Part shown: one piece after another, positions 985 to 31,451 of the stretch | Position numbering within the stretch: position 1 is the stretch's first letter | Layout: each line of letters begins with the position of its first letter | DNA from: a virus | Virus record (IMG/VR): IMGVR_UViG_3300032053_000002 | Coordinates: 108,752 to 172,751 of that record | Direction: 5' to 3' (one strand) | DNA length: 64,000 nucleotides | The notes under the pieces: model-generated | What the model was told of the DNA's origin: nothing | Database searches by the model: none | Seen by the model: only the letters and a program-made list of their open reading frames with translations | Position numbers and translations under genes: made by a program

Positions 985-1074
985 TGGCGGAGAGCATAGG
1001 ATTTGAACCTACGCTGCGTTACCGCAGGCCTCGCCTTTCCAGGGCGGCACAATACCTGATTCTGTCAACTCTCC
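985..1074 (-). tRNA. tRNA-Ser (anticodon GGA), type II with long variable arm, CCA encoded
   Basis: Reverse complement GGAGAGT..ACA/TGT D-stem..anticodon loop CTGGAAA..variable hairpin CTGCG/CGCAG..T-arm GTAGG TTCAAAT CCTAT..acceptor GCTCTCC-G-CCA. Confidence 0.8.
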
Positions 1075-1082
1075 ATCTTTCT

Positions 1083-1364
1083 TTACTGATCCAACTTTAA
1101 AAAATTATAAAATTTTTTTAACTCTCGCATAGTCATCACAACCCTTTTTACTCCATATACCACAGAATAAACGGCATCGAGTTCTGGAGTATAAACAAAA
1201 CTCTCGGATTCTTTTCCGGTATCTAATAAATGTTTATCTTTAATCCACACCATTTTTCCGTTAAACGGATATTTTTCAATAAATGTCCAACCATCTTTTC
1301 GTAATCGTCTCGGTGTAATTTTGAGCATCCATAAGTCTCCTTTGTATCGCGTTACGAATTTCAT
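1083..1364 (-). CDS. hypothetical protein, 93 aa
   Basis: ORF between two tRNA genes. Confidence 0.5.
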   Translation of the reverse strand: MKFVTRYKGDLWMLKITPRRLRKDGWTFIEKYPFNGKMVWIKDKHLLDTGKESESFVYTPELDAVYSVVYGVKRVVMTMRELKKFYNFLKLDQ

Positions 1365-1379
1365 TTTTTAAGTTTTTCG

Positions 1380-1466
1380 CGGAGAGCATAGGATTTGAAC
1401 CTACACGACTTTTCAGTCGACCTCGCATTTCGAGTGCGGTACAATACCGGATTCTGTCAACTCTCC
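1380..1466 (-). tRNA. tRNA-Ser (anticodon CGA), type II
   Basis: Reverse complement GGAGAGTTGACAG...anticodon stem CGCA/TGCG loop CTCGAAA...T-arm GTAGG TTCAAAT CCTAT...acceptor GCTCTCC. Confidence 0.8.
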
Positions 1467-1472
1467 ATAATA

Positions 1473-1649
1473 TTAATATTTCCTTTTAGATTTTCTGAAA
1501 GTCTCCAATACGTTCGGATCGGTTGTTGGTGATTTCTTTTCCGCCCACTTTTTCTCTTTATTTTCCGTCCACTTTGTTAATTGTTTATTCACAAAATATA
1601 AAATAAATACGGCGACTAAAACAATCAATCCAATAAATAAAACGTTCAT
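1473..1649 (-). CDS. small membrane protein (~58 aa; start trimmed to internal Met so it does not overlap tRNA)
   Basis: Track ORF 1473..1709 overlaps tRNA-Ser(TGA); internal ATG at 1649 gives MNVLFIGLIVLVAVFILYF... single TM helix plus Lys-rich tail. Confidence 0.4.
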   Translation of the reverse strand: MNVLFIGLIVLVAVFILYFVNKQLTKWTENKEKKWAEKKSPTTDPNVLETFRKSKRKY

Positions 1650-1676
1650 ATGTATTTCCTTTCTATTGGCTTTTCG

Positions 1677-1762
1677 CGGAAGATGAAGGATTTGAACCCT
1701 CGCGTCCAAAGGACGACCTCAGCTTTCAAGGCTGGTGCGATGCCGGACTCCGCCAATCTTCC
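1677..1762 (-). tRNA. tRNA-Ser (anticodon TGA), type II
   Basis: Reverse complement GGAAGAT..anticodon loop CTTGAAA (stem CAGC/GCTG)..T-arm GAGGG TTCAAAT CCTTC..acceptor ATCTTCC perfectly pairs GGAAGAT. Confidence 0.8.
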
Positions 1763-1766
1763 AATA

Positions 1767-2003
1767 CTATTTTTCTTTATCTTCTTTTCTTTTATTAAGG
1801 AATATTTTATTTATCAACGTCCATGCACTTAATCCAATAGAAATTAAAACTCCTAATTCCTTAACTACATCTAATAAATAATAAATGTTTAATTTTTGAA
1901 GTATGTATGTTAATAAAAACGCTCCCGCTGCCGCAGAAACTAAAAATTCTGTTACCGCGTGCCACATCCGTGACTTCCAAAACTTACCTGTTATGTTTTT
2001 CAT
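1767..2003 (-). CDS. small membrane protein, 78 aa
   Basis: ORF track; two hydrophobic segments. Confidence 0.45.
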   Translation of the reverse strand: MKNITGKFWKSRMWHAVTEFLVSAAAGAFLLTYILQKLNIYYLLDVVKELGVLISIGLSAWTLINKIFLNKRKEDKEK

Positions 2004-2039
2004 AACATAAACTCCAATTAGCGGAGAGTATAGGATTTG

Positions 2040-2125
2040 AACCTATGTGCCCAAAGGGCAACCTCGGTTTAGCAAACCGGTACAATACCTGACTCTGCCA
2101 ACTCTCCAGAACGATCTTTATTTCA
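2040..2125 (-). tRNA. tRNA-Ser (anticodon GCT), type II
   Basis: Reverse complement GGAGAGTTGGCAG...anticodon loop TTGCTAA...T-arm ATAGG TTCAAAT CCTAT...acceptor ACTCTCC. Confidence 0.8.
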
Positions 2126-9643: not shown

Positions 9644-9705
9644 AATATAATCATTCCCGAACTACCAGTCAAGAATTATTTTTAAATATTGTGATTTTTT
9701 TCACA
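9644..9705 (-). promoter_or_regulatory. sigma70-like promoter TTGACT-N17-TATATT with upstream perfect TGTGA-N6-TCACA palindrome (9690-9705)
   Basis: Reverse complement TTGACT ggtagttcgggaatgat TATATT; palindrome TGTGATTTTTTTCACA. Confidence 0.6.
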
Positions 9706-11697: not shown

Positions 11698-11774
11698 TTT
11701 TTCCCGCGGGTTTCAATTATAAAATAAAATCTTGCTTGCCGTGCAAATCTTGCCCGGACACTTTTTGCAACCAA

Positions 11775-11890
11775 TATATTTCGCAACCATATTTATTAAC
11801 TTCTCGCTCGCAACCATATTTATTAACTTCTCGCTCGCAACCATATTTATTAACTTCTCGCACGCAACCACATTCATTAATCTTTCGTTA
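11775..11890. repeat. 27-bp direct tandem repeat, 3 near-perfect + 1 degenerate copy (cgcaaccatatttattaacttctcgct)
   Basis: Visible by eye; the track ORF 11713..11895 (MVASEKLIN x3) is produced by this repeat. Confidence 0.8.
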
Positions 11891-14884: not shown

Positions 14885-15075
14885 ACTGCGAAATACTTCA
14901 GGCGAAGTTATCTCTGCAAAATACTTCAGGCGTCCGTTCCGATGACAGAAGAATGATGTCAGCAAAATACTTCAAATGATGTCAGCAAAATACTTCAGGC
15001 GTCCGTTCCGATGACAGAAGAATGATGTCAGCAAAATACTTCAGGCGTCCGTTCCGATGACAGAAGAATGTGCGA
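14885..15075. repeat. iteron-like array: 17-mer GCAAAATACTTCAGGCG x5 within ~46-bp units x3
   Basis: Direct inspection; ORF-free region. Confidence 0.75.
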
Positions 15076-15380
15076 TACCCCTTGACCCGCTCGAGCGCAT
15101 TGCGCATCTCGGACTTCCTGACTTTCTACGCCTGAGACACACCCACCAAGACCACAAGACAGGCCATGTGAAACCCTTCACAAACTGCCATACCCGCACG
15201 ACTACCCCCGCACTAAAAGGCACTCGCCGCTCGTCTACTGGCACGTCCAGAAAACGTTCTCTGATGCGGGTTGACATCGTTATACCGCTCCAGCTCCGCT
15301 CCAGCTCCGCTCCAAATAGATATGGAGATTTTTTGCCCTGGAAAATAACTTACAGTTTGCAAAGAGTTATATAGTGGGAA

Positions 15381-22325: not shown

Positions 22326-22691
22326 TTAATTAGTCCTCGACTTGGATGCACGTAACCAGTCAGTATTGACTACTACCGGAACGACATCAGTGATCTTACC
22401 ATTAGCAACTTTCGCTAACTGACCAATATATTTTTTGATTCTACGTTTGATGATGGCGAACTGCTTGTCAGTGATAAACCCAAACCGTGAATAGAAGTTA
22501 CCGATGCTGGTAAATATCTCACCATCGACACCAGTGAACCCCACTCCATTATCTTCGGTCGTACCAACGAATGATTTTTCGCCACGAGTCTGAAGAGAAT
22601 AGATTCTCAGGAAACCCTTGAATATGGCGTAGTCATTGTCTATCAGCATATTCGCTATATCTTCTTTATTATACTTTGGTTTTGTTTTCAT
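22326..22691 (-). CDS. hypothetical protein, 121 aa
   Basis: ORF track; consensus promoter at 22700-22728. Confidence 0.5.
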   Translation of the reverse strand: MKTKPKYNKEDIANMLIDNDYAIFKGFLRIYSLQTRGEKSFVGTTEDNGVGFTGVDGEIFTSIGNFYSRFGFITDKQFAIIKRRIKKYIGQLAKVANGKITDVVPVVVNTDWLRASKSRTN

Positions 22692-22699
22692 AATAGTAT

Positions 22700-22728
22700 A
22701 ATATACAATTCCTCAGTATAACAGTCAA
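22700..22728 (-). promoter_or_regulatory. sigma70-like promoter TTGACT-N17-TATATT
   Basis: Reverse complement TTGACT gttatactgaggaattg TATATT. Confidence 0.55.
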
Positions 22729-22754
22729 ATTATTTTTTAACTATTCTTACAGAG

Positions 22755-22883
22755 TGTGAAATTATTCACAAGATCGTCGCCGTGACTGGCGACTTGCCAT
22801 CCCGAGCCTTGTGAAGTTTTTCACAAAGTAGCGGCTCAGCTTGACGCGAGCAAGCGGCCGGCCGCGTTGTGAAATTTTTCACA
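22755..22883. promoter_or_regulatory. cluster of three perfect CRP-like palindromes TGTGA-N6-TCACA (22755-22770, 22810-22825, 22868-22883) with GC-rich hairpins between them
   Basis: TGTGAAATTATTCACA, TGTGAAGTTTTTCACA, TGTGAAATTTTTCACA; also GTCGCC-gtgactg-GGCGAC hairpin and 12-bp palindrome GCGGCCGGCCGC. Confidence 0.6.
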
Positions 22884-22899
22884 AGCGACTGTAATAAAA

Positions 22900-23255
22900 A
22901 AGTCCTACGTCCGTGACTTCCATGTAGCCTCGGGTTGCGATCCCGTTCGTCATGGCCTCGTCACGTAATTCGTAGGACTTTTCTCACCTAAGTCGTTTCC
23001 GACTGTCCACATTACCTGCTAGCCGGCGGGATAGTTGGATGGGCGACGACTCCCATCATCTCATACCGACACATACGGCCGGTGCGCCTTTCTTCCTTAG
23101 ACCACAACTATTTTCGGTGATTCTCGCGATTTCTGCCGAATTCGCGATACTTTTATTCATTTCTCAAAGAACAAAAGAGTGCCCCGTAGGACACCCCCGA
23201 ACGTTCTCCCGGGGAGTGTCCTCCACGCGGGTATACGTTCCATATTTGATATACT
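22900..23255 (-). ncRNA. candidate ~350-nt structured non-coding RNA (GC-rich, ORF-free, own promoter and terminator-like 3' stem)
   Basis: Consensus promoter at 23256-23284 fires into this segment; no credible ORF on either strand; 3' end forms long stem GTCCTACG...CGTAGGAC followed by a U-run (plus-strand aaaaaaGTCCTACG at ~22905); GC content far above surrounding DNA. Confidence 0.4.
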
Positions 23256-23284
23256 AATATACAACTTCTTGGCGAGAAAGTCAA
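23256..23284 (-). promoter_or_regulatory. sigma70-like promoter TTGACT-N17-TATATT
   Basis: Reverse complement TTGACT ttctcgccaagaagttg TATATT. Confidence 0.55.
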
Positions 23285-23292
23285 CTGTTATT

Positions 23293-23472
23293 TTAACTAA
23301 ATGGGGAATCTCGATCTTCTAACTCGTCGAGCGTACGCTTGAAATCTTCGAGCGTCTCAATATATTTCAACTTCAGCTGCTTGTTTTCTTTAAGCAATCG
23401 CTCCACTTCCTTCTTCAACTCGGAGATGGTTTTCAGCATCTCGATCTTATTCTTTAGTTCAGCGGTAGTCAT
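23293..23472 (-). CDS. small coiled-coil protein, 59 aa (below track cutoff)
   Basis: ATG 23472, TAA 23293-23295; MTTAELKNKIEMLKTISELKKEVERLLKENKQLKLKYIETLEDFKRTLDELEDRDSPFS. Confidence 0.35.
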   Translation of the reverse strand: MTTAELKNKIEMLKTISELKKEVERLLKENKQLKLKYIETLEDFKRTLDELEDRDSPFS

Positions 23473-23498
23473 ATCTTATCCTTATTTTTAAGTCTTAG

Positions 23499-23723
23499 TT
23501 ATAGAACAAAAAAAACCGCTCGGTTCTTTCCAACCTTTTCATACGTCAACACCCTTGAAGGGCGGAAATCGCTCAAATAACCGGCGAGTTCATCCAAAGA
23601 ATCGAAATACTTCGGCGAAAAAAACTTATCAGGATCGGGGTCTTTTTCCAATACCCATCGCTTGTTGAGCATTTTGCGCCGATTTTTGACCTTGTTGGCG
23701 AAATAATGGTCGGTGGTTTTCAT
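23499..23723 (-). CDS. hypothetical protein, 74 aa
   Basis: ORF track. Confidence 0.45.
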   Translation of the reverse strand: MKTTDHYFANKVKNRRKMLNKRWVLEKDPDPDKFFSPKYFDSLDELAGYLSDFRPSRVLTYEKVGKNRAVFFVL

Positions 23724-23753: not shown

Positions 23754-23829
23754 TGGGGTGCACGGTGAGATTCGAACTCACGCTCCGCGGGTCACAGCCG
23801 CGTAATGCTACCGCTACATCACGCGCACC
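23754..23829 (-). tRNA. tRNA-His (anticodon GTG) with G-1:C73 and encoded CCA
   Basis: Reverse complement G-GTGCGCG..anticodon stem CGCGG/CCGCG loop CTGTGAC..T-arm GTGAG TTCGAAT CTCAC..CGTGCAC-C-CCA. Confidence 0.85.
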
Positions 23830-25563: not shown

Positions 25564-25664
25564 GAACTATTTTCGCTATAGCGGCATTCCGGACGGCAAT
25601 GCGGTCGTAACTAGAGCCCTTCGTGAACTTTTTCACATACGGTCTGTACGTTTTCTGTAAGTGG

Positions 25665-25745
25665 TTTTTCAATCCGCTCGCTCCTCTCGGTTGCAATCCG
25701 CTCGCTCCTCTCGGTTGTCAATTCGCTCGCTCCTCTCGGTTGTAG
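25665..25745. repeat. ~23-bp direct repeat x3 (ccgctcgctcctctcggttgcaat)
   Basis: Direct inspection, GC-rich ORF-free island. Confidence 0.8.
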
Positions 25746-25854
25746 GGGGCAACTCGGTAGACGTGTCAGGCGAGTTCAGAACCGTGCATGCAAATAGGCA
25801 GCCTGAAGTGTGTTCGTCGTGTGGGGGGGTTCTTGGCGGGAGTTTGTGGTTTGT

Positions 25855-25912
25855 GCGGGAGTTCTTGCGAGAGTTTGCGCGGGAGTTCTTGCGGGAGTTT
25901 GCGCGAGGAATC
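25855..25912. repeat. ~22-bp direct repeat x2.5 (gcgggagttcttgcgagagttt)
   Basis: Direct inspection. Confidence 0.75.
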
Positions 25913-26084
25913 GTGGAGAAGTGGGGGCATGGGGGTGGCGGTGCTTCCGACGAGTAGCAATTGCGCATCGGCAATACCTGCGACCCACTATTATAATATT
26001 ATCCGAATATCAAAAAGGCGTGGATTATTTATTTATAATAGGGAAGTGATTATCAATTCCAGCAAGTTGTATCAAATAGGCGAG

Positions 26085-26165
26085 TGATATGCAGCGATAT
26101 GCAGTGATATGCAGCGATATGCAGTGATATGCAGTGATATGCAGTGATATGCAGCGATATGCGCT
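26085..26165. repeat. 10-bp tandem repeat gatatgcagY x8
   Basis: Direct inspection. Confidence 0.85.
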
Positions 26166-26178
26166 GTAATATATATGG

Positions 26179-26937
26179 CTAATAACGTTGTATAAAAGCG
26201 AGTTCCGATTTAAGATTAGAAAGAAAGAAATGTTCATCAGTAGTTCTATCGAATACTATTGTAGCATCGTGTATAGTAGGTTGATCATAAATTAGTTTCG
26301 GATCTATATTATTTTTAGAATAGTCGCCGATTAGTTGTTTGGCCAGAACATTTAATGTTTGTAAATCATCTTTTTTTAAAGATGGTCGCAGTAACAAATG
26401 GTCTACAAATATAAATCGTAATCTTGCCTGAAAGCGTTCTTCTGATATTAAATACTCAAATATTCTCTCATATTTCGAAGTATCATTTTCCCATAATGCA
26501 TAGGATTCGCGAAGAATATGTCTCAATTTGTTTAATATCGTATAGTATTTATTTATGTAATATTTTTCGCCGAGGTGATTCGTATGATATTTACTTCTCC
26601 AGAATTCAAGCCGGGTTGAAACACTAACATCTTTACTAAGAAGGCTTTGCAGATGATTAATAGAAAAAAATGTTTCACTTTGATTGAGTAACTTGCGAAC
26701 TTCATTAAAATCATAGCTTTCGCCTTCTTGCGAAGTTTGGGCAGATTTATTTAGACACTTAGATACGATTTGGTGCTCTATTATTTTATAGTGCGAAAAA
26801 TCTTTATCATACATTAAAACACCGCCGATTGGCAGCGCTTCTGCATAAAACACATAAGAGCGAATATGTATTTTGTTGTCTTTATAAAAAGATTTTAAGT
26901 TGATAGCGTGAACAGGTACTATATTTGTATTAGACAT
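26179..26937 (-). CDS. hypothetical protein, 252 aa; paralog of 29441..30142
   Basis: N-terminal VPVHAINLKSFYKDNKIHIRSYVFY matches LPVHVINLRENMSRARIYVKSIVIY of 29441..30142. Confidence 0.55.
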   Translation of the reverse strand: MSNTNIVPVHAINLKSFYKDNKIHIRSYVFYAEALPIGGVLMYDKDFSHYKIIEHQIVSKCLNKSAQTSQEGESYDFNEVRKLLNQSETFFSINHLQSLLSKDVSVSTRLEFWRSKYHTNHLGEKYYINKYYTILNKLRHILRESYALWENDTSKYERIFEYLISEERFQARLRFIFVDHLLLRPSLKKDDLQTLNVLAKQLIGDYSKNNIDPKLIYDQPTIHDATIVFDRTTDEHFFLSNLKSELAFIQRY

Positions 26938-30998: not shown

Positions 30999-31337
30999 TT
31001 ACTCCAACGGTGATATAGAAACGTCGCCAGTCTTTAATCCAGTGGCGACAATATAATATTTATATCTTGAAGACATGGATAATCCGCTAGTGGAATATTG
31101 TATTTCAATTATAGCAATATTAACATCGTTTTCGCCGAAGCCGTCTATTACTCGGGTGCCTTCGTATAAGACTTTAACGCCTTTTACTTCGAAACCTCCA
31201 GACGTTGTTTGCGAATTCGCGATTTTTATGAATCCGGTGCCGAATAACAAAAACAATATTAGCATGGTTAAAAAGAATGTTAGCGCCGTTTGAACGGAGG
31301 CCGATTTTAATATTTTATTCATAATGTTTCTCCTCAA
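30999..31337 (-). CDS. secreted protein with N-terminal signal/TM segment, 112 aa
   Basis: ORF track; hydrophobic N-terminus. Confidence 0.5.
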   Translation of the reverse strand: MRRNIMNKILKSASVQTALTFFLTMLILFLLFGTGFIKIANSQTTSGGFEVKGVKVLYEGTRVIDGFGENDVNIAIIEIQYSTSGLSMSSRYKYYIVATGLKTGDVSISPLE

Positions 31338-31354: not shown

Positions 31355-31451
31355 GGAAGGACGGTGGGATTCGAACCCACCTATTACTTGCTCATACGGA
31401 CTTAAACCGTCGCACTTTTGTCGCATTCCCGACATTCCTGTCACGTCCTTC
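31355..31451 (-). tRNA. atypical ~97-nt tRNA-like gene, anticodon loop UUUAAGU (anticodon UAA, Leu-type), Sec-like geometry
   Basis: Reverse complement: acceptor GAAGGAC/GTCCTTC, U9, D-arm TGACA-GGAA-TGTCG (5 bp, 4-nt loop), 19-nt insert, anticodon stem ACGG/CCGT, 14-nt variable region, 6-bp T-stem GGTGGG TTCGAAT CCCACC. Confidence 0.45.

Follow-up and report, generated by a model that had tools for sequence, protein, structure and literature searches.

A Probable Stand-Alone Non-Coding RNA Gene with a Skipping-Rope-Like Core in an Uncultured Jumbo Phage

The RNA Locus and Its Surroundings

The DNA analyzed here (the window) is a stretch of 64,000 nt from the IMG/VR virus record IMGVR_UViG_3300032053_000002 (positions 108,752 to 172,751), with a GC content of 35% and nearly all of its genes on the minus strand. 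A gap of 601 nt, in which neither strand has an ORF (open reading frame) above 72 amino acids (a.a.), separates a gene of 59 a.a. (end 23293) from the next gene downstream, of 121 a.a. (start 22691), and within it lies an island of high GC content (0.51–0.55 over 22800–23200, compared to 0.35 for the whole window), one of four such islands in this DNA. We consider it very probable that this island is a genuine gene for a non-coding RNA, carried by a large uncultured phage. We further consider it probable, with somewhat less confidence, that the gene stands alone and that its product, a structured RNA of ~355 nt, acts in trans and contains a core resembling the skipping-rope class of phage and prophage RNAs (Rfam family RF02924). 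The original prediction, made from the sequence of the island, had described a consensus promoter, a GC-rich segment with no plausible ORF, complementary GC-rich runs towards the 5′ end, and a long 3′ stem followed by a U-run; all of these descriptive claims hold, and all of them on the minus strand.

The phage bearing this RNA is present in ~12 metagenome contigs, the longest of 292,723 nt, and the source is thus an uncultured jumbo phage, for which no relatives beyond ~95% identity have been sampled. A DNA similarity search against 50,697 GenBank phage records, in both near and distant modes, gave no match, and the window proteins show only remote likeness to those of jumbo and other large phages. 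Among the genes encoded in the window are five tRNA genes, a phage metallopeptidase, a NUMOD3 endonuclease, and a large sugar-biosynthesis cluster, with the tRNA-His gene (23754–23828) lying 500 nt upstream of the RNA unit. The immediate neighbors are equally isolated. A homologue search with the 59-a.a. protein returned itself alone, the 121-a.a. gene found nothing when used as a query in IMG/VR, and its product has just five homologues among 5.8 billion proteins; at the locus of the one that is 59% identical (contig L005), the RNA is absent and there is no synteny. Pattern scans for variants of the window RNA found none in IMG/VR and none in the JGI metagenome collection; one further pattern match proved to be coding sequence and was discarded as a false positive.

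A Promoter Family Shared with Protein-Coding Genes

Upstream of the island lies an extended sigma-70-type promoter with an A/T-rich upstream element (23255–23300, minus strand), comprising the −35 hexamer TTGACT (23284–23279), a 17-nt spacer, and the −10 hexamer TATATT (23261–23256), which together score 10/12 in a promoter scan. From this arrangement, we infer a transcription start at ~23250–23248. The promoter is a member of a 46-nt repeat family (D1; aaATAgTTAAAATAnCAG-TTGACT-N17-TATATT), identified by repeat search and regular-expression scan, of which ~14 near-identical copies occur in the window, all on the minus strand. Every other copy of the family is followed by a start codon within ~10–40 nt, whereas downstream of the copy at 23284 the sequence is instead rich in GC and highly self-complementary. 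The RNA promoter is invariant in all of the allelic contigs (described below) that cover the site (7/7). Presumably, the ~14 promoters define one temporal class, and the RNA promoter would be an early one.

The −35 hexamers of the family start at positions 396, 2197, 6613, 9672, 13826, 18733, 20222, 21652, 22728, 23284, 24077, 25563, 35026, and 35239 (all minus strand), and the TATATT hexamer is often trailed by nnnGTATA. The start codons at 22691 and 21623 (minus strand) lie just 6–9 nt past the −10 hexamer, and judging by these two gene starts the phage appears to produce leaderless or near-leaderless mRNAs.

We also noted five perfect CRP-type palindromes (TGTGA-N6-TCACA) in the window, compared to 0.01 expected from shuffled sequence, at 22755–22770, 22810–22825, 22868–22883, 9690–9705, and 15167–15182, with a near-match at ~25630–25645. 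Three of these, spaced 55–58 bp apart, sit between the terminal hairpin of the RNA unit (T2, below) and the promoter at 22728 that serves the 121-a.a. gene; the sites do not differ among alleles, in contrast to the spacers that separate them. The proximal palindrome is centered at about −70 of this promoter, and the 9690 site lies at about −60 of the promoter at 9672. Their placement suggests that the palindrome-bearing promoters are regulated by CRP of the host or by a CRP-like dimer of the phage, and hints at a CRP-possessing host.

Predicted Structure of the Transcript

The 356-nt RNA (23250–22895, minus strand) has a predicted folding energy of −131.7 kcal/mol, compared to −108 ± 5.3 kcal/mol for dinucleotide shuffles (z = −4.5, with 0/100 shuffles folding as well), and the fold includes stable UACG and GAAA tetraloops. 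The opposite strand is also well folded (z = −5.35), so folding alone cannot identify the strand; the minus strand was assigned because it carries the promoter, the U-tract, and the covariance-model hits described below.

The first element of the minimum-free-energy fold is a 5′ hairpin (23199–23240), in which GAACGU/ACGUUC stems surround CCCG..GGAG/CUCC..CGGG. It is followed by a terminator-like hairpin, T1, detected by a terminator scan (23163–23198; GGGGUGUCC-UACG-GGGCACUCU, then the U-run UUUUGUUCUUUG), and by a further hairpin, H2 (23124–23147; UCGCGAAUUC/GAAAUCGCGA). An outer 5-bp helix (23120–23116/22988–22984) then encloses the core, a skipping-rope-like four-helix junction (23030–23112) on which the Rfam model, a model of our own (R1, below), and the unconstrained fold converge. 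Its closing helix, P1 (AUAGUUG/CAACUAU, 23111–23105/23037–23031), leads through a 2-nt junction (UG) to P2 (GUCU/AGGC, 23102–23099/23089–23086), and a single linker G separates P2 from P3 (23084–23077/23072–23062), which is closed by the first G of the GAGAUG motif. After a 4-nt junction (AGAU) comes P4 (GAUGGG/CCCAUC, 23057–23052/23043–23038), which abuts P1.

Two extra hairpins follow the junction (22984–23029), one with a CCGC..GUGG stem and an inner GCU/GGU stem, the other (AGUCG-GAAA-CGACU) with a GNRA loop. The last element, T2, is a long irregular hairpin of 89 nt (22895–22983, with its U6 tract) seen both in the fold and by direct reading of the sequence; here, GAAAAGUCCUACG (22983–22971) pairs with CGUAGGACUUUUU (22909–22897) around three further helices (−39.7 kcal/mol). 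T2 and the U6 tract are the predicted 3′ end of the transcript and its putative intrinsic terminator. Given that T2 is flanked by an A-tract, it may terminate transcription in both directions.

Natural Alleles

Using the upstream 59-a.a. protein, we retrieved eight allelic contigs that are 95–99% identical to the window and represent four distinct alleles, which show which parts of the RNA tolerate change. The promoter and 5′ domain (23300–23113) are identical in all of them, apart from an insert in the H2 loop of contig L002, while 13 variable columns cluster at 23096–23002. Nine of the 13 are unpaired, in loops or junction-internal loops, and three lie in helices where pairing is kept, namely 23083 A>G (A-U to G.U), 23069 U>C (G.U to G-C), and 23023 G>A (G.U to A-U). 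The remaining column breaks a pair (23002 U>A) and does so in a single contig, L133. Across the alignment, 99.4% of paired cells retain pairing, compared to 25–37% in slid controls, and the excess of changes at unpaired positions has p ~0.03 by a rough binomial estimate.

The core is at the same time a divergence hotspot, with 12 of the 16 differences that separate allele L129 from the window over 22600–23500 falling inside 85 nt (23096–23012). In contig L134 the two haplotypes have recombined, and the switch from one to the other falls between P3 and P4.

Similarity to Skipping-Rope RNAs

At gathering thresholds, Rfam reported nothing beyond tRNAs. A permissive scan of a pre-specified 900-nt region against 4227 Rfam families gave one meaningful match, to the skipping-rope RNA (RF02924; 23105–23031, minus strand; 21.6 bits, E = 0.026 over all families), located on the same strand as the promoter and the U-tract. 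In allele L129, the same model scored 33.0 bits in the predicted register (E = 7.9e-6; 661-nt search, all families), which comes close to the gathering score, so that a match by chance is unlikely. The comparison with Rfam proposed in the original prediction did yield a match, sub-threshold both in the window and in L129. The further suggestion, of a structured RNA such as a ribozyme or an RNA like 6S, tmRNA, or RNase P, stands in part. The promoter family, the terminator hairpin, the folding z-score, helix-respecting variation, and ORF-breaking indels among alleles all support a dedicated structured non-coding unit; at E values up to 10, however, the region has no Rfam match to RNase P, 6S, tmRNA, ribozyme, riboswitch, or tRNA models, and ARAGORN finds no tmRNA. 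The tmRNA fragments reported in the whole-window Rfam scan lie outside the region and are T-arm-like 17-mers.

A pattern scan of IMG/VR for canonical skipping-rope RNAs found many loci, including 17 RNAs above the Rfam threshold (41–78 bits), and a covariance model, R1, was built from 16 Rfam-confirmed IMG/VR members with the window left out. With filters off, R1 placed the segment 23112–23030 (minus strand) at the top of the whole window with 26.5 bits (E ~5e-6), compared to 10.7 bits for the runner-up. The R1 and Rfam alignments share their helix register with the unconstrained fold of the 356-nt RNA, in which P1 closes P2, a bulged P3, and P4 with linkers of 2, 1, 4, and 0 nt, and the window RNA matches 19 of the 20 columns that are invariant in the 16 members (GAGG junction, CGCACC, GAGAUG, and GG..CC..CC). 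As a control, R1 was run on 92 IMG/VR loci that bear the motif and are not skipping-rope RNAs; one reached 25.1 bits and the rest scored ≤17. The motif itself thus accounts for much of the score, so that structure and context are needed as further support for the claim. Taken with that support, the sequence similarity indicates that the core is probably a divergent RNA of the skipping-rope class, though it falls short of the Rfam threshold for formal membership.

The runner-up R1 match (30952–30873, minus strand; 10.7 bits, E = 0.45) lies in the gap after the gene at 30999–31337 and holds GAAGG...GGGGUAAGAGAUGCGG...CCGCC plus a U-run. This site is probably the terminator of that gene, and could be a decayed skipping-rope copy.

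Weinberg et al. (2017) describe skipping-rope RNAs as followed by terminators, rarely located in 5′ untranslated regions (UTRs), without observed self-cleavage, and associated with a nearby protein gene on either strand (PMC5737381). For orphan, highly conserved RNAs of bacteria and phages, skipping-rope among them, a 'sophisticated biochemical function' was considered likely in 2017. No functional study of a skipping-rope RNA was found in the literature searched. The window RNA resembles the class in its ~80-nt four-helix junction with P1 closing three hairpins, in its retention of CGCACC, GAGAUG, and the GG/CC pairs of P4, and in being phage-borne with an intrinsic terminator downstream. T2 and its U6 tract begin 46 nt past the motif, and the next gene has its own promoter, which places the motif outside a 5′ UTR. 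Unlike canonical skipping-rope RNAs, which are ~80 nt long with a simple terminator almost directly after them, the window motif is embedded in a ~355-nt transcript, begins 137 nt past the predicted start, and is followed by two extra hairpins and the 89-nt terminal hairpin. Its setting, a 35% GC jumbo phage with a promoter from a repeated family, also differs.

We inspected the genes next to canonical skipping-rope RNAs in IMG/VR. At 7 of 28 loci (L007, L015, L052, L058, L080, L082, and L094), a gene with a PBECR2 or PBECR3 RNase domain, alone or fused to MuF, ends 44–74 nt upstream of the RNA on the same strand. MuF genes also occur at L038 and L083, tandem skipping-rope copies at L007 and L038, and other canonical loci have BRO-N, HTH, or unknown neighbors. 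PBECR domains are predicted to be phage RNases with a BECR fold (PMC5512222). At the window locus, the 121-a.a. neighbor was considered as a hidden PBECR/BECR nuclease and rejected (hhalign probability 0.3%); its AlphaFold model is all-helical (pLDDT 75) and has no significant fold match in the PDB.

Several observations weigh against a skipping-rope-like RNA gene at this locus. The RF02924 scores of the window (21.6 bits) and of L129 (33.0 bits) are both below the gathering score of 36.7 bits. Searched at the scale of the whole window with all families, the RF02924 match has E = 1.9, no better than several spurious matches, and the independent model test was made because of this value. With R1, the control locus at 25.1 bits is coding DNA of 75% GC. 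Position A9 of the junction, invariant in the 16 members, is U in the window RNA, and P2 is cut to just 4 bp. An hmmsearch of six-frame ORFs found no PBECR gene in the window (best E = 0.49), and there is neither an adjacent MuF gene nor a homologue of any canonical skipping-rope neighbor in the window, so the protein-gene association of the class is missing here. Among the four distinct alleles there are no two-sided pair changes, and the allelic variation thus amounts to consistency and not true covariation. The T1 hairpin, taken alone, does not exceed what shuffled sequence gives for terminator-like sites. Lastly, relatives beyond 95% identity are absent from every collection searched.

Given these points, we weighed the explanation that the island encodes a genuine structured non-coding RNA of a new class, whose likeness to skipping-rope is convergent or due to chance. 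The scores under the gathering threshold, the motif-bearing coding sequence in the R1 control, and the missing PBECR neighbor speak for it, as does the fact that the motif occupies the central 83 nt, about a quarter, of the transcript and leaves three quarters without any Rfam match. We nonetheless regard a new class as unlikely, given the E value of L129 across all Rfam families, the 19 of 20 invariant nucleotides in the company of all four helices and the 2/1/4/0 linkers, and the location of the match on the promoter and U-tract strand of a phage, with a terminator downstream as in the family.

A Candidate Switch in the 5′ Domain

The complementary GC-rich runs noted in the original prediction form an alternative helix in the 5′ domain. 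GGACACUCCCCG (23221–23210), which lies in the 5′ hairpin, can pair with CGGGGGUGUCC (23199–23189) over 11–12 bp (−18.5 kcal/mol), and the 3′ arm of this antiterminator helix overlaps T1. The 5′ 90 nt have two competing conformers, the 5′ hairpin plus T1 at −37.1 kcal/mol and the antiterminator at −33.1 kcal/mol, with the antiterminator being the best fold when 64–70 nt have been transcribed. On these modeled energies, the pair looks like an attenuator. As in attenuators and riboswitch expression platforms (e.g., pyrBI), a terminator and an antiterminator helix that exclude each other and are similar in energy lie right after a promoter, and as in pyrBI-type attenuation a short ORF runs through the terminator. 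In contrast to those systems, there is no recognizable aptamer or sensor, no Shine–Dalgarno sequence, and no coding gene directly downstream; the item gated at this locus would be another RNA domain.

These features allow a different interpretation of the island as a mainly cis-acting regulatory or insulating region, in which coupled translation of a 28-a.a. leader ORF (ATG at 23243 to TGA at 23157; MERIPAWRTLPGRTFGGVLRGTLLFFEK), beginning ~6 nt past the transcription start, would suppress T1 in the manner of pyrBI, and T2 would limit read-through into the 121-a.a. gene. The proposal is motivated by the passage of this ORF through T1, where it spans both the terminator and antiterminator elements, together with the two apparently near-leaderless genes (22691 and 21623) served by the same promoter family; the regulated promoter of the downstream gene, with its three CRP-type sites, also fits. 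Against it, the leader ORF has no Shine–Dalgarno sequence, and its ~6–7 nt leader means that the mRNA would not be leaderless in the strict sense. The alleles do not vary in the 5′ domain, and the leader ORF therefore offers no informative substitutions, while the downstream gene has a strong promoter of its own. The 250 nt of RNA with a conserved fold between T1 and T2, and the skipping-rope match, would also be left unexplained. On balance, a mainly cis-acting role seems quite unlikely, and we retain the trans-acting RNA as our working interpretation.

Non-Coding Status and Origin of the Island

All ORFs overlapping 22895–23250, on either strand, are of 72 a.a. or fewer. The alleles differ by three 1-nt indels and one 100-nt insertion, such that no ORF on either strand survives, and coding explanations of the island were rejected on account of these indels. 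Neither ARAGORN nor the Rfam tRNA model (RF00005) calls a tRNA in 22895–23250.

The insert in contig L002 replaces the H2 loop (23139–23130) with 110 nt of tRNA-like sequence (L002:121–230). It has a T-arm (GGCGTTCGAATCCCACCGC) and, at the position of the anticodon loop, a 7-bp stem capped by a UACG tetraloop (i.e., a 4-nt loop), and is called as a tRNA by ARAGORN at a relaxed threshold (-ps80) only. Fifteen nucleotides of its T-arm are identical to positions 31362–31376 of the window. At that site, an intergenic, degenerate tRNA-Leu(UAA)-like element (~31355–31439, minus strand) has a good T-arm and acceptor stem and an aberrant D region; it is missed by default ARAGORN and by the Rfam tRNA model, and otherwise gives only a tmRNA-3′-end-like 17-mer in Rfam.

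The tRNA-like insert, the degenerate element elsewhere in the window, the tRNA-His gene 500 nt upstream, and the further GC-rich islands could all be taken to mean that the island is a non-functional GC-rich remnant, for example of decayed tRNA genes or acquired host DNA, that happens to lie behind a promoter. We consider this very unlikely. The tRNA model does not match the island, whose strong fold has stable tetraloops, and allelic changes avoid or preserve its helices. Its 5′ 190 nt are perfectly conserved while adjacent spacers vary, and it is equipped with its own promoter and terminator. A known counterpart of a structured, GC-rich non-coding gene near phage tRNA genes is found in the species 1 and 2 RNAs of phage T4, which are processed from tRNA precursor transcripts. 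The tRNA-like insert in one allele adds to the resemblance; unlike the T4 RNAs, the window unit has its own promoter and terminator, and it shares no sequence or model similarity with them. As for the short ORFs, a 34-a.a. ORF (23160–23056, minus strand) and a 72-a.a. ORF (23039–23257, plus strand) do exist, but it is extremely improbable that either specifies a real product, since the L002 insertion cuts the former after 13 codons, a 1-nt deletion at 23096 inside both and a 1-nt insertion at 23044 inside the latter cause frameshifts, and the 34-a.a. ORF is without a proper ribosome-binding site and the plus-strand ORF without a promoter.

Proposed Mode of Action

The elements described above can be assembled into a tentative model. 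Transcription would start at ~23249 from a strong host-type promoter, probably early in infection. The first 90 nt would then adopt one of two nearly equal folds, either the T1 hairpin or a 12-bp helix that sequesters the 5′ arm of T1, and because the two are so closely balanced T1 may release a short product of ~85 nt or serve as a gate for read-through. Read-through would give the ~355-nt RNA ending at T2 and the U6 tract, with T2 also insulating the next promoter, before which the three CRP-type palindromes lie. Together, the 5′ switch and the two terminators would set the amount of the long form, the functional heart of which would be the 83-nt four-helix junction. By analogy with the skipping-rope class, the core most likely acts in trans by binding a protein partner, rather than as a base-pairing small RNA, a riboswitch, or a ribozyme.

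Regarding the nature of this partner, one speculative and rather improbable option is a BECR-fold RNase, for which the RNA would serve as a tRNA-shaped decoy or antidote; the RNase could be that of a host anticodon-nuclease-type defense or a phage PBECR effector. This idea draws on three observations, namely tRNA-like linker lengths, the PBECR association of canonical RNAs, and the hypervariable core. As we read the Rfam consensus, the skipping-rope junction is arranged like a tRNA cloverleaf, with a closing stem of 7–8 bp and linkers of 2, 1, 4, and 0 nt, and a core that is hypervariable among strains is what an arms race would predict. Production of such a decoy may be gated by the 5′ terminator/antiterminator switch.

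The locus reveals no new kind of system. It does extend the orphan skipping-rope class to a jumbo phage, to a strong promoter of a repeated family, and to a composite architecture, in which the 5′ terminator/antiterminator switch, the extra hairpins, and the polymorphic tRNA-like insert flanking the core are new. The adjacency of PBECR2/3 genes to canonical RNAs leads to a hypothesis for the class as a whole, in which a BECR RNase would have the RNA as its partner, antidote, or substrate mimic, and this adjacency may be more useful than the window locus itself. For annotation, the case indicates that RNAs which belong to known classes yet score below threshold can be present in AT-rich phages, in GC-rich islands devoid of ORFs.

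Other Features of the Window

Elsewhere in the window, four tRNA-Ser genes (985–2107, minus strand; anticodons GGA, CGA, UGA, and GCU) are spaced ~300–400 nt apart. The region 35000–64000 is occupied by a large nucleotide-sugar and polysaccharide biosynthesis block, the content of which is unusual for a phage and includes epimerases, a GDP-mannose dehydratase, an aminotransferase, a carbamoyltransferase, glycosyltransferases, and radical SAM genes. The scan of 80 window ORFs further identified a histidine kinase and a response regulator.

Direct-repeat arrays occur in further non-coding islands (14905–15088, 25666–25742, 25830–25960, 26073–26182, and 11754–11887), of which several are GC-rich. 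Their repeat units comprise a 69-nt tandem repeat, three copies of a 24–25-nt unit (AACCGAGAGGAGCGAGCGGATTG), a CTCCCGC-rich unit, ~ten copies of the 10-nt CTGCATATCR, and a 27-nt unit, and the arrays may represent iterons, an origin, or arrays of regulator-binding sites.

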